Assembly (NCBI GenBank): GCA_964016885.1
Contig: OZ024740.1
Location: 272,614,001-272,678,000, forward strand
Source of the DNA: Eledone cirrhosa
Lineage: Eukaryota
DNA: 64,000 nucleotides
Direction of reading: 5' to 3'
The position numbers were made by a program, and so were the translations under genes. The notes beneath the pieces are model-generated. The model saw only the letters and a program-made list of their open reading frames with translations. It was not told the origin of the DNA and ran no database searches. Within the stretch, counting starts at the first letter, position 1, and each line of letters begins with the position of its first letter. Shown in pieces: positions 3,068 through 18,760 of the stretch.

Positions 3068-3469
3068 AAACAAGCAAATTATAAAGGTAAACATGTAAGT
3101 ATGTTTGTGAAACGGTGCGCGAGTTTGAAATTAGAAATTAGAAATTATAAGCTTTCACCGTATTTTAGACTAAAGAAATTTCTAGTCTGATAGTGGGGTT
3201 TATAACCCTCGGAGAAATGGAAAAAGATGAGTGTTGCCGTACTTGGGAGTCGAACCCACATCTTTGTTTATCCAGACCACTGTGCTATCATTTAATGGTA
3301 GCACAGTGGTCTGGAATGGTAGCACAGTGGTCTGGATAACCAAAGAAGTGGGTTCAACTCCCATGTACAGCAACACTCATCTTTTTCCATTTCTCCGAGG
3401 GTTGTAAACCCCACTACCAGGCTAGAAATTTCTTTAGTCTAAAATACAGTGAAAGCTTATAATTTCTAA
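3068..3469 (+). mobile_element. Fold-back element with tRNA-like head in (TA)n
   Basis: 3138-3292 is the reverse complement of ~3315-3469. The right arm carries an A-box-like taatggtagca and B-box-like ggttcaactcc. The left arm has an extra tail (3068-3137). Confidence 0.8.
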
Positions 3470-3594
3470 TATATATATATATATATATATATATATATAT
3501 ATATATATATACTCTTTTACTCTTTTACCTGTTTCAGCTATCCGGCTGAGGCCATGCTGGGGCACCGCCCTTGTATATATATATATATATATGT

Positions 3595-3886
3595 AGGAGG
3601 TGAGTTTTATTGTAGTACAATAAAGCAATGCAGATATCGGATAAGAAGCACTCTACAGTTTGTAGGACTGAAGTATACATAATATATAAGAACAAAATAT
3701 GGTTAAAAGTTGATGGTTATATGTTGATTTAAAACTGCACTATCCACAAGTGTTTTTTACCTTCATATCATGTCTTCCTGTTTTATCTGATGAAAACACA
3801 AATATTATTGCATGATGATATTTGTTTTTGAAATGCGTATAATAAAATACATGGAACTCTTTTAACCATCTTTTGTTCTTATATAT
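3595..3886 (+). mobile_element. TA-flanked PLE-type element with inverted 3' end and hammerhead
   Basis: 3682-3710 is inverted relative to 3857-3886. Hammerhead at 3780-3848. Confidence 0.7.
3780..3848 (+). ncRNA. Type I hammerhead ribozyme with long stem II
   Basis: gttttat CTGATGA aaacacaaatattatt-gcat-gatgatatttgttttt GAAA tgcgta TA ataaaat. Confidence 0.78.
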
Positions 3887-4021
3887 ATTATATATATATA
3901 TATATATATATATATATATATATATATATATATATATATATATATATATATATATATATATATATATATATATATATATATATATATATATATATATATA
4001 TATATATATATATATATATAT

Positions 4022-4183
4022 AACGTAGGAAATGTGGTAAGGAACCAGGTGGACCATAACGCACCAAAGTACTTAATACTTAGGGTAGTAGAGTGGGTAA
4101 TAGGAACGAGTAGGACCACGACGGCTGATCTCAAGCCGTTTCGAAACGGCTTGAGCTCAGCCGTCGGGGTCCTACTCGTTCCT
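4022..4183. mobile_element. Family A PLE terminal-repeat fold-back in (TA)n
   Basis: The palindrome centred at ~4142 (gccgtttcgaaacggc) recurs at 44907, 58022, 59456 and 61570. Confidence 0.8.
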
Positions 4184-4771
4184 ATATATATATATATAAG
4201 TCTATCCCAATATGTTTCTATCGATTTATTTGTCTCTCACTATACATTTATCTATTCCATTCTCACCCGTCATTTGCGTTTTACTACACTGACATTGTGA
4301 CGAGAAGTGATATTGTACGTTACACCTGTTCTGATTTAATTACACATTCATACTTCTTAAAAAATCACTAGTCGATAAATACAATGTTTGACCTACGAAG
4401 AATAGGAGGAAAAGTAAGAGAAAAGAATGAATGCAACAATATCAATACTAAAACAACAGAGGGTAAAAATGGAAGTATAACAAAACAAACCTATTAACCA
4501 GAAACATTCAATAAATGAGTAGAAAACTGTATAAACGCCCTCATTCAAACAAAATAATATAACAAAACACAGTAACTAACTAATAAATTATACACCCAGA
4601 TACAGAAAGCACACAATGGAATATAGACATATACATACATATATGAATATTATATAATTGCAAGGGTAAGGGATTGACTAGACACATGTTTTAATTATAT
4701 ATATATATTATATATATGTATATTATATATATATATATATATATATATATAGATATAGATAGGTAAATATA

Positions 4772-5001
4772 CACGGGTGTGTATGATTGTGTATAGAAGA
4801 TTATATTAATAAGAGGAATTCCAACTTTGTCTGATTTACTCGTTTTATTTACAATCCCTTAAAATATATATAATGGTATTATAATAAAATAGTATGATAG
4901 AATATTAAATTCTAAGTGTTAATTGAACAAGTACTTTCATGCTTTCGCAATCTTCAGGTTCATGATATGTGGTGACAGTCGAGTTTGCAATTTTCAACTG
5001 T
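4772..5001 (-). mobile_element. TA-flanked hammerhead element (inverted partner of 9899-10093)
   Basis: Reverse complement of 9899-10093 plus a tail. Hammerhead 4924-4962(-): tgaac CTGAAGA ttgc-gaaa-gcat GAAA gtac TT gttca. Confidence 0.8.
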
Positions 5002-5262
5002 CATATATATATATTGTCATCTCTCTCTCTCTCTCTCTCTCTCTCTCTCTCTCTCTCTCTCTCTATATATATATATATATATAGAGAGAGAGAGAGAGGG
5101 TGAGAGAGATGCACGTGTGTGTGTGTGTGTGTGTGTGTATGTATTAAAATTTATAAAACTTTTAATACATACACACACACACACGCATCTCTCTCTCTCT
5201 CTCTCTCTCTCTCTCTCTCTCTCTCTCTATATATATATATATATATATATATATATATATAG

Positions 5263-5405
5263 TCAGCACCCCGACGGCTGAGGTCCGGCCGTTTCAACAT
5301 GGGTCGGGGTCCTGACTCTTTCCCTATTACTCGCTCTATTACCCTATGTATTGAGTACTCTGGTGCGTTATGGTCCACCTCGTATCTTACCACACCCTCT
5401 TTGTT
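5263..5405 (+). mobile_element. Diverged family A fragment
   Basis: attgagtactctggtgcgttatggtccacc...ttgttatata matches the family A tail. Confidence 0.7.
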
Positions 5406-15785: not shown

Positions 15786-15820
15786 TATCTATCTATCTAT
15801 CTATATATCTATGTAGTTAA

Positions 15821-16354
15821 GTCCCCTCTTCAAAAACGAAGGAGAGGCGGTGTTTCTGTGCGTAATAGCCATGGCGAAAGAGGTTGTATGGTGGACGCGT
15901 CTGAAAGGACTGAGGTCAGACACCTTTCTCTCTGGCCAACAACTGGTCCGTTTCTTCCGATATCATTTCGGAAGAAGGATCAGGATGGAGAGAGAGGTGC
16001 TGCACCCCAGCCGTTTTTATGAAAGATGGGTGAAAGTGGCGAGAATGGCCCGTGTGAATGGGCCTTCACTCTACATCAGACTATAGGTGAGGAAGATGAA
16101 AGACCAAGGGAGCACCCCCTCTCTGTGCTCCTGGGGAGAAGGGTTGCACACTTTTTTCGGGGGTGTGTGCGACCCCCCAAGGCGCCTCCTCTCTATTGAG
16201 GATTTTGTTATAAATTTTATTTTGTTACATTTTATTTTATTTTTATATTTTGTTATTGCCTCCTCCTTATTGAGGACGCCTTGTTATGTAAACCCCCCCC
16301 CCCATTGTACTTGTCCCACTTTTTGATGCCCTGGTGGCAAATAAAAAGAAAATG
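15821..16354 (+). mobile_element. 5'-truncated Tx1-like copy with 14-bp TSD
   Basis: The ORF2 C-terminus is intact in frame. atctatgtagttaa occurs at 15807-15820 and 16355-16368. Confidence 0.9.
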
Positions 16355-17239
16355 ATCTATGTAGTTAACAAACTAGATTATCAGTGTATCTCTCCGTTCA
16401 TCAGCCACTCGTCTGCCAGTCTCTCTTTCATTCTGTGTATTCCTCCCGAACGACCGTGAAAGATAGGTTTACAAATATTTAAACTGGTTTATTTGATATA
16501 GTGTAAAGGGTGTGACTAATATAATATTTAATATAGTTTATTTAATGTGTGTGGCTAATATAATATTAAACTAGGTTTAGTTAAGATATTATGAAAAAAA
16601 TATACCATATTGTACCATGTTCATACTACCGCTTACTCATTCACTTTTAAACCCTGACAAACTACACACCGCTACCTTACATACCTTACATGTGCAGTAC
16701 TTATCATAATCACTATTATGTGTCCAATTTCACATGCACATATATATGTATACATACACACTCCAGCTAATACACATAGAGGGACAAACACACACATACA
16801 TACATAAATGTATATGGATTCACATACATATCTATCTATTCATCTCTTTCTCTCCCTCTCTCTTTATATATATATATATATATATATATAAACAAACATA
16901 AATTATCGAGATTCGCATTTCGGCCCACGAAATAACGAAAAACAACCTCCGAGATGTGCGGCAAGTGCTCAATGATTCAGATGAACCAGAGCTATAACAA
17001 ACGTTAAAGGCCAAACACACTGAGACGATGGTTAAACAATCATTCGCATAGCCAAAAAAAAAACGATTAAGTAATTCGGGTATTGAAAATTTACCCGGAC
17101 CCCTGGAAGGTTGGTAAAATCCAGTATATGGGTTTCTGCGGCTCCTAAATCAAGTACTGTCCGCTTACATAAATAATGTCTGGCTTCTGGTAAGATGATT
17201 GAACAAGGAAGCCCCTATATATATATATATTAGTATTAG

Positions 17240-17945
17240 GTTCTTCCGTGGCTTTCGGTGCATCGAGCAGTAAGTACTCGCCAACGATCCTGATCAACAG
17301 CGGTTTTTTCGCGTCCGTGCCAAGTGATGTTGGCTGCCATCAGGTCTTCTTGGAACATTCGTCACCAGGTATCCTGGGGCAACCCCGCTTCCGTTTGTAC
17401 CAGGTGGAGTCCAGTTAATGGCTATTTTCGAGTGTCGTTCGTTGGGCAGGCGCAGAATATGGCCAGACAGGCGGCACCGGCGCTCCGTGACCATCTTCTG
17501 CAGTGTCCATGACTCGGCTCTCAGTAGTATTTCTTTGTTTCGCACTCGGTCACGCCAGGACACACGAAGGATCATTCCCAGGCACCCCTGGTGGAAAGCG
17601 TTCAGCCGTCTCTCTATTTTTGCCGTGCTCTTCCAGGTTTAGCTCGCGTAAAGCACTGTCGGCGGCACGATGCTCTTGTACAGGCAGAGCTTGTTCCTGG
17701 TGCTGATGAATGAACACAACCAGACTGGGCGCATCCGCTGGAAAACTGCGGCTCCTTTGCAGATCCGACAGTTGATGTTGAGCTCCAGGTCACCATTGTT
17801 TACCAGTATGCTGCCCAGATAGGGGAAATATCAACTTCTTCCAGGTCTTGTTGGTTGACTCTGATTGCTGAACCTGTGTTTTTGGCTGTCCTCACCTACG
17901 TTTTTTGGTGTTCATTCTCAAACCGATATTTTCCACACTCTCTTG
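17240..17945 (-). mobile_element. RTE-clade LINE 3' fragment
   Basis: FPYLGS; ILRVSWRDRVRNKEIL..GHILRLPNERHSKIAINWTPPG. Confidence 0.85.
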
Positions 17946-18151
17946 TGCGGGGGAAGGGGAGGGGTGTTTCCACATTTAGCTGTTTATTAATTGTTTAACG
18001 TATTGTGACCACCCTGACTTCCGGATTCGTATTTACAACGTAGGATCGCTGTAAATTCATCAAGTGAGTGGATGGCGACTGCGTTATACGTAATCTAAAT
18101 TTATAATATATATACATCTACATCTTATATATATATGTATATATATATATA

Positions 18152-18414
18152 TTAGGGGTTTCATGAGATATGTGGTTTACTGAGAAAGGTACTAGTATTA
18201 GCACTCTATACTACAGCAGAGTATATACATTAAGAAGAACAAAACGAGGTTTCACATTGAGGTTTTTAGTGATTAGTCTCAGTTACGAACGTTTCAGAAA
18301 TGGGTGGCTCAATGACCATATTTGTGTTATATACCCGAGTCCAACTTCAATTTGCTCATCAGAGAAAAATTGGAATCTCATCTCAGATGTGAAAACCTCA
18401 AATTGTTGTACTTA
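18152..18414 (-). mobile_element. TA-flanked element with hammerhead-like core and long stem II
   Basis: The minus strand of 18283-18362 reads CTGATGA gcaaat...atttct GAAA cgttcg TA; stem I is not paired. Confidence 0.5.
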
Positions 18415-18427
18415 ATATATATATATA

Positions 18428-18760
18428 TTAGATAGTGAAAAGAGTACCTCTGTTGTATCTTTGACTAAGTAAATTAGCCTAATAATTTGGAGTTATAAAA
18501 CCCCACAGAAATGGGAAAACGAATGTGTATTAACGTACATGGGACACGAACCCTCATCTCTAGCTACCATGGCCATTGTGTTATCATTACACCAACACGC
18601 CACTAACACACATTTACATAAAATTTGAAACTATATAATCATACTGTATGAATACATATATATAAGATACAAATATAAATTTAATGGAAATACAACGGTG
18701 GCACTATTTCCATTATCTAATTTCAAATTGTCCGGTGTTTGTAAACAAAAGCTGAAAAGC
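18428..18760 (-). mobile_element. tRNA-like element related to 3068-3469, with upstream TATA and inverted 3' end
   Basis: The minus strand reads ggcgtgttggtgtaatgataacac...gggttcgtgtccc. TATATA lies ~30 nt upstream (18632-18637). 18428-18458 is inverted relative to 18691-18720. Confidence 0.72.

Follow-up and report, generated by a model that had tools for sequence, protein, structure and literature searches.

The stretch of Eledone cirrhosa DNA analysed here, 64,000 nucleotides (nt) of contig OZ024740.1 in assembly GCA_964016885.1 (positions 272,614,001 to 272,678,000 of the forward strand; hereafter the window), contains two repeat copies, E1 and E2, which carry a tRNA-like segment, as short interspersed elements (SINEs) do, and which lie in (TA)n next to an inverted copy of their own 3' end. 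The question raised by this locus is whether such copies were inserted by the machinery of a long interspersed element (LINE) or, as the initial annotation had proposed, form a SINE-like class dependent on Penelope-like elements (PLEs). Both stretches proved to be real repeat copies, with limits adjusted to 3066-3470 (E1) and 18427-18763 (E2). They belong to a high-copy, non-coding unit of 260-290 bp with an internal tRNA-like module, and this unit is probably copied and inserted by the reverse transcriptase (RT) and endonuclease of a PLE and not by a LINE. The feature itself is confirmed in DNA and groups with the non-autonomous PLE-type elements. Penelope mobilisation we infer from the architecture of the insertions, which supports it well; no autonomous partner was found in the loci sampled.

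Two window copies and their repeating unit

E1 and E2 are copies of related subfamilies, A and B, of the one unit and were 71% alike over 138 nt. Their parts are given below, with unit positions counted from +1, S and L denoting the short and long 3' end sites, and T5 a run of five T.

3066..3292, minus strand: E1 long arm, subfamily A, unit 14-240 (cut tRNA module, then T5, body and tail), its 3' end at L, within (TA)n
3066..3137, minus strand: E1 tail, reaching from the short 3' end site (169) to the long one (240)
3293..3315, plus strand: E1 junction duplication of 23 nt, the arm start being doubled at the fold-back junction
3315..3470, plus strand: E1 short arm, unit 14-169, its 3' end at S, within (TA)n
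18427..18673, minus strand: E2 arm, subfamily B, unit 216 via +1 to 175 (module and body, preceded by 72 nt of upstream unit), its 3' end at S, within (TA)n
18531..18601, minus strand: E2 tRNA-like cloverleaf with an A box and a degenerate B box (RF00005 24.3 bits, E 0.0027, under the cut-off of 29)
18678..18691, plus strand: E2 junction filler of 14 nt, copied from the upstream part of the unit (263-276)
18688..18763, plus strand: E2 inverted arm, unit 142-218, 76 nt comprising the 3' end and the tail in inverted orientation and running out into (TA)n

The minus arm of E1 (3292-3066) was identical to the subfamily A consensus at 221 of 227 positions. The two arms of E1 mismatched at 9 of 155 sites, and E1 is therefore not a mirrored assembly copy. 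(TA)n lay on either side of E1 and a target site duplication (TSD) was absent; (TA)n bordered both ends of E2 as well. With respect to the tRNA-like A/B-box heads described for the two copies, the module of E2 was whole, but that of E1 was cut at the junction and its A box was halved because tRNA positions 1-12 are missing. ARAGORN called no tRNA anywhere in the window, and an Rfam scan of 1-24000 gave neither tRNA nor hammerhead among the matches listed (150 of 160), which were mostly microsatellite and hairpin noise. E2 had indeed kept sequence upstream of its module, although this measured 72 nt and not the claimed 90 or so, with TATATA beginning at -36 and not near -30. This motif was present in the B consensus, missing at the matching place in A and in a third subfamily, A2, and is simply part of the repeating unit; being B-specific, it makes a weak argument for a retained promoter.

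In the genome, an assembly of 3.0 Gb, a 23-nt head pattern had 1,537 exact matches compared with 0 for its reversed control, which excludes a chance origin of the pattern. A first look returned 1,266 candidates with E1 as query and 924 with E2, and a B-specific pattern had only 24 exact matches and is not usable as a copy count. The consensus units of A (290 bp), A2 (260 bp) and B (286 bp) were 67-81% identical to each other and shared one order: the tRNA-like module, T5 about 10 bases behind it (unit 81-85 in A and A2, 83-87 in B), some 85-95 nt to the short end zone S (169-176), a further 45-70 nt to the long end L (240) and, past L, 45-65 nt leading into the following module of head-to-tail units. 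The term "tRNA-headed" used by the initial annotation had to be given up, since the tRNA sits inside a circularly permuted tandem unit with the terminator-like T5 right behind it. The head was the best conserved portion of the unit. Units were non-coding and had no poly(A) or simple-repeat tail of their own. No exact hammerhead core (CTGANGA) occurred on either strand of A, A2 or B, and five one-mismatch matches were not common to all three subfamilies; on the antisense strand of A, a resemblance to a hammerhead was dismissed for lack of conservation.

Insertion anatomy across the genome

Main counts were taken from loci in genome order, because picks by best score are biased for ends. The first 100 listed head-pattern matches, all on contig C1 and all requiring an exact 23-nt head match, gave 82 distinct loci, of which 78 (60 A2, 18 A) were kept once two near-duplicates and two loci off the fetched edge had been removed. 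The inverted 3'-end copy plus tail reported for the window copies proved to be a family trait: 50 of the 78 loci were two-armed with both 3' ends outward, and none had them inward. An arm exceeded one unit at 43 of 78 loci, running through the unit boundary into the previous unit. (TA)n adjoined 103 of 128 3' ends, compared with 15% of flank positions, and TA stood on both sides at 45 of 78 loci. A TSD-like repeat was present at 2 of 78 loci (a looser rule gave 6, mostly TA-rich), in agreement with the (TA)n setting without TSD first noted at E1 and E2. Best-score samples of subfamily A had 34 of 49 loci inverted and 73 of 83 3' ends in TA.

The 5' junctions were variable; the 3' ends fell into two fixed zones 45-70 nt apart. 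Among the 50 two-armed loci, 36 combined a long with a short end, one had two long ends, one had two short ends and 12 had one unclassified end, so that long and short were paired at 36 of the 38 classifiable loci (p 3e-9). Within a locus the arms had 154 of 426 variant sites in common (36%), compared with 8% between loci (0 of 1000 permutations; 40 A2 loci, one further near-duplicate removed), and both arms therefore derive from the same template or source locus. When 114 heads were followed upstream, 24 stopped at -8..+7 and 90 carried on into upstream sequence, which means that most copies do not start at +1. The rate of 5' stops at -8..+7 was nevertheless 1.48% per nt versus 0.64% upstream, a 2.3-fold excess (p 7e-4; 0.002 without +5..+7). 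Some arms ended at -4 to -8 instead of +1, and a few one-armed monomers spanned about +1 to the long end.

Long arrays were found as well. A 6.9-kb two-armed insertion (L298:912-7830; G000:C1:131458000-131467500) had a long arm of about 25 A2 units and ended at S and L in TA. Pairs of units that are not neighbours in this arm had variants in common, a pattern pointing to expansion at the DNA level, or to the copying of an older array, more than to rolling on a single circle. At L121 and L299 (G000:C28:106966000-106975000) an array of at least 7 kb, with a period of 92 bp, consisted of just the head (about -8 up to the T-run) and led into a normal body, tail and (TA)n.

As a control, a conventional tRNA SINE of the same genome (window copy 34593-35380) was scored in the same sequences under the same TSD and inversion rules (n=84). 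In contrast to the tRNA unit, this SINE had a TSD in 44 of 84 copies, an inverted neighbour in 1 of 84 and a start within 13 nt of the head in 57 of 84. The features of the unit are therefore a property neither of the assembly nor of TA-rich DNA. Copies of the conventional tRNA SINE at 34575-35390, 36020-36397 and 52124-52508 formed head-to-tail runs parted by duplicated target sequence, as if by repeated insertion at their own end. The common SINE of the window is possibly of an octopod type.

Sequencing data outside the assembly also argued against inversions as assembly artefacts. A fold-back contig was present in a short-read run, possibly of the assembly's own sample, and 88 raw reads with two start places, from another sample, covered the opposite-strand joint of a different copy. 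The family was also found in runs labelled organisms B and C in one study, one with (TA)n at the short end and one, in a contig, with the head-to-tail junction at the expected 79-nt spacing. Among the reads and contigs listed, none spanned the whole E1 stretch. No RNA run was among the listed runs that contain the unit, and four runs under other organism labels, two of them presumed to be RNA, placed nothing on a single unit; neither result bears on expression.

These ends resemble those described for PLEs. In the text available of PMC8557442, PLEs form partial tandems with an inverted truncated copy and a tail often at one end only, use (TA)n targets and have non-autonomous forms. The part available of PMC11167929 describes a PLE nicking both strands at AT-rich DNA, with two internal start sites and a tail formed by the interval between them, hammerhead cleavage being dispensable in vitro. 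The ends of the present unit match these marks in every point.

Penelope context and the tRNA-like module

The window is rich in (TA)n and two-armed repeats, and two neighbours have the same layout as E1 and E2, as had been pointed out by the initial annotation.

2101..3050, plus strand: two-armed neighbour repeat, 2101-2453 inverted to 2626-2990, with a 60-nt tail to 3050 and, by eye, a hammerhead-like motif at about 2785-2825
6928..9391, minus strand: PLE fragment with a GIY-YIG open reading frame (ORF, 8099-8941) between inverted arms

The two-armed family with hammerhead-like motifs (type I) also occurs at 19002-19235 and 20899-21638. The PLE family of 6928-9391 has long-ORF copies elsewhere and a pseudo-long terminal repeat (pLTR) with a variant hammerhead-like core. 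In the genome, the endonuclease fragment of this window returned 81,323 candidates and PF01541 returned 10,596; several PLE families were sampled, and genome copies had long ORFs with RT and C-terminal endonuclease (GIY-YIG). The PLE fragments of the window and a 768-aa ORF were not recognised by Pfam. Other repeats in the window comprise hammerhead-like motifs, seen by eye, in short TA-flanked repeats (3785-3845, about 10380-10440); a 438-bp tandem unit in 2.4 copies (19254-20347 and 9424-9721, hammerhead-like motif near 19597), a candidate retrozyme; a short TA-flanked repeat with small inverted arms and many window copies (4023-4182, 44968-45096, 58024-58299, 59457-59539, 61571-61759); and a LINE-type fragment at 864-1598 (zf-RVT domain, E 4e-6) with related pieces at 13119-16175 and 29424-30532.

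An intact subfamily A head (copy L076) scored 38.1 bits with RF00005 and ARAGORN called a tRNA in 11 of 12 A loci, but in only 1 of 10 B loci and nowhere in the window. Heads scored 55-58 against the genome's tRNA-Gln gene, which was picked out by means of a motif, and 27-46 against three Thr genes, Gln and Thr being the only isotypes compared; the D arm was nearly identical to that of this tRNA-Gln. On 32 of 43 non-redundant heads, a cloverleaf with a 9-pair acceptor-stem extension was 89.2% paired (cells), compared with 28-56% for slid controls. The extension draws on sequence upstream of +1, and the acceptor stem of subfamily A was imperfect. Changes on both sides of a pair clustered in three pairs and mirrored the A/B split; support for a conserved fold is modest, because these changes reflect mostly that single split. 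The many G-U pairs make the strand in the tRNA sense the likely one to fold. A functional tRNA gene was rejected: the anticodon loop varied among subfamilies and copies, the Ser call came without a long variable arm, and the D arm was Gln-like.

A different repeat, family C (L135-L144), accounted for 10 of the 13 top RF00005 matches fetched. Its length exceeds 1 kb; a terminal hairpin forms its start, following TA, and about 290 bp inside lies another kind of tRNA-like gene, of variable anticodon. Family C is possibly a rolling-circle or DNA element. As a longer element with a fixed hairpin start, it was rejected as a second example of the present form.

The following route would produce the insertions described. 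An RNA in the tRNA sense, multimeric or circular, would serve as template; both strands of an AT-rich target would be nicked by the PLE protein; cDNA would begin at two internal sites, S and L, of one template; and two cDNAs joined at their far ends would give a mirror-image insertion. Whether the tRNA module gives the unit a Pol III promoter of its own, with transcripts that begin near -7 and some of which read through T5, is in our judgement about evenly balanced. The A and B boxes, the Gln-like D arm and the excess of 5' ends near -8..+7 speak for this role, and the head-only array of L121 and L299 fits it. More tentatively, and slightly on the doubtful side, these units may be self-promoted, ribozyme-free Penelope parasites in which the tRNA module takes the place of the hammerhead: it would drive transcription by Pol III and also define the RNA of the unit, and one RNA would be primed at two sites.

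Several observations weigh against Penelope mobilisation or against the promoter role. T5 should halt Pol III before the S and L ends, yet most arms reach upstream of the head and arms of 2-3 units are common; the 25-unit arm would be hard to produce by Pol III. The excess near +1 was read from the limits of BLAST alignments and might reflect pausing of the reverse transcriptase. Older B copies were less clean, with 14 of 29 inverted and 21 of 43 3' ends in TA (best-score sample), (TA)n flanks are able to mask short TSDs, and neither A-to-G strand bias nor RNA-editing scars marking an RNA stage were found. The helper search covered 87 PLE loci: 30 from the PLE family present in the window, 7 longer regions, 30 loci with GIY-YIG and 20 regions, each of 8 kb. 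Both blastn and a profile of the non-tRNA part, run against these loci and all 300 retrieved sequences, returned copies of the family itself only, the Naiads of this genome being outside the sample. Similarity of the 3' end to an autonomous PLE, sought as a sign of dependence, was thus not seen in the loci sampled.

Two further explanations keep the PLE and differ as to the tRNA module. The fold could be a processing signal that replaces the retrozyme hammerhead: multimers made by Pol II read-through would be cleaved there by the host's RNase P or RNase Z into units, which may then be circularised; we regard this as possible, if rather unlikely. The whole cloverleaf and stem extension are kept beyond what a promoter needs, the sequence upstream of +1 is used in the pairing, S and L lie at 169-176 and 240 counted from +1, much as the ends of the neighbour repeat lie about 168 and 228 from its hammerhead-like motif, and the 5'-end excess near +1 fits a cut too. 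However, several arms end at -4 to -8, the stem of A is imperfect, the paired changes come mostly from one split, and an extension pairing leader with trailer may block RNase P or RNase Z. The module could instead be along as a passenger: a detached pLTR would have taken up an old head from a tRNA or a SINE, and host read-through of tandem copies and arrays would supply the template. That 90 of 114 arms pass +1 without stopping, that long arrays exist as possible sources and that PLE insertion in vitro can dispense with hammerhead cleavage (in the part available of PMC11167929) would all suit a passenger, but the keeping of boxes, T5 and fold across subfamilies 67-81% identical, with the head best conserved, makes it unlikely.

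Explanations that dispense with a PLE fared worse. An ordinary LINE-driven SINE whose copies were rearranged afterwards would account for the tRNA-derived A/B boxes, for the 24 of 114 heads that start near +1 and for the few one-armed monomers from about +1 to the long end. It is rendered extremely improbable by the two 3' end sites, the inversion of 50 of 78 loci, the conserved upstream sequence, the TSD-like repeats at just 2 of 78 loci, the lack of a poly(A) or simple-repeat tail and the opposite behaviour of the control SINE. No tail shared with a LINE was seen in the 1.03 Mb searched, which held no non-family match but in which the genome's LINEs were not surveyed. Rolling-circle elements also show tandem copies and absent TSDs. 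That the unit is such an element, of the Helitron or Helentron type, is very improbable, and so is a palindrome artefact of the assembly, for which the want of a listed read or contig across the whole of E1 might speak. The ends are fixed on the 3' side alone, where either of two sites is used and a long end goes with a short one; the E1 arms differ at 9 of 155 sites; and the fold-back contig, the 88 reads over the opposite-strand joint (another copy) and the head-to-tail junction in the contig of another label also stand against these readings.

Known systems and significance

With PLEs and non-autonomous PLEs such as MRC1, as described in the source text available, the unit has in common partial tandems, an inverted truncated arm, a tail at one end, a (TA)n or AT-rich target and no discernible TSD. 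Unlike these elements, it has no ORF, it carries an internal tRNA module, no 3' similarity to an autonomous family was found, and its tail measures 45-70 nt against the 30-40 nt described there. Sm-alpha and Sj-alpha of Schistosoma are short tandem units of tRNA derivation with an apparent Pol III promoter, Sm-alpha reportedly being derived from tRNA-Gln (available text of PMC6765202 and PMC2770079). Sm-alpha resembles the present unit in its short tandem units and Gln-like tRNA head, and tandem copies are required for its propagation. It differs in its active hammerhead, none having been found here, and these sources, so far as available, describe neither two-armed tailed ends nor a PLE helper for it. 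Sm-alpha is a partial precedent. Animal non-LTR retrozymes (LTR, long terminal repeat) are non-coding tandem units of 170-400 nt, present as monomers to arrays and proposed as non-autonomous PLE derivatives (available text of PMC7229834 and bioRxiv 10.64898/2026.07.22.740005). Each retrozyme unit has a type I hammerhead, whereas the present unit has a tRNA module instead and no pLTR homology was found in the PLE loci searched. The word "tRNA" is absent from the available text of that preprint.

The TRIMp3 elements Cassandra, Helenus and Ajax likewise have a small-RNA-derived Pol III promoter in a terminally redundant non-autonomous element that keeps upstream sequence (available text of PMC10886601). 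They are LTR elements with a primer binding site (PBS), a polypurine tract (PPT) and 5-bp TSDs, and "Penelope" is absent from this text. The present units showed no LTR-internal-LTR layout and ended at two internal sites (PBS and PPT were not searched separately). Cassandra reportedly starts in one 5S copy and ends in the next (same text), a precedent for read-through. The A/B boxes, short length, non-coding nature and high copy number are shared with tRNA-derived SINEs (SINE2); the control SINE differs in its start at the head, in its TSDs and in the near-absence of inverted copies. In the supplement of PMC8557442, as available, both A-box terms had 0 matches and two 12-mers had 2 and 1 matches in unrelated context, and the available parts of PMC4209133, PMC4758252 and bioRxiv 10.1101/596502 held no description of this form. 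Full-text searches of the literature, with Repbase, most subscription papers and bioRxiv supplements outside their reach and perhaps containing such entries, turned up no Penelope-dependent, ribozyme-free tRNA element.

How PLEs build inverted insertions is named as open in the available text of PMC8557442. The strict pairing of long with short ends and the variants shared between arms are in vivo constraints on how this is done, and, at 260-290 nt, the unit lends itself to in vitro work as a minimal template. Repeats of this sort also lead to overestimates of tRNA gene number. Mobile elements derived from tRNAs are known with LINEs (SINEs) and with LTR elements (TRIMp3), and a Penelope-dependent version would extend them to a third retrotransposon class. 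If the self-promoted, ribozyme-free reading is true, more than 1,000 young copies in this genome would record the in vivo copying mechanism of Penelope elements, and the unit would be the PLE counterpart of SINEs and TRIMp3.

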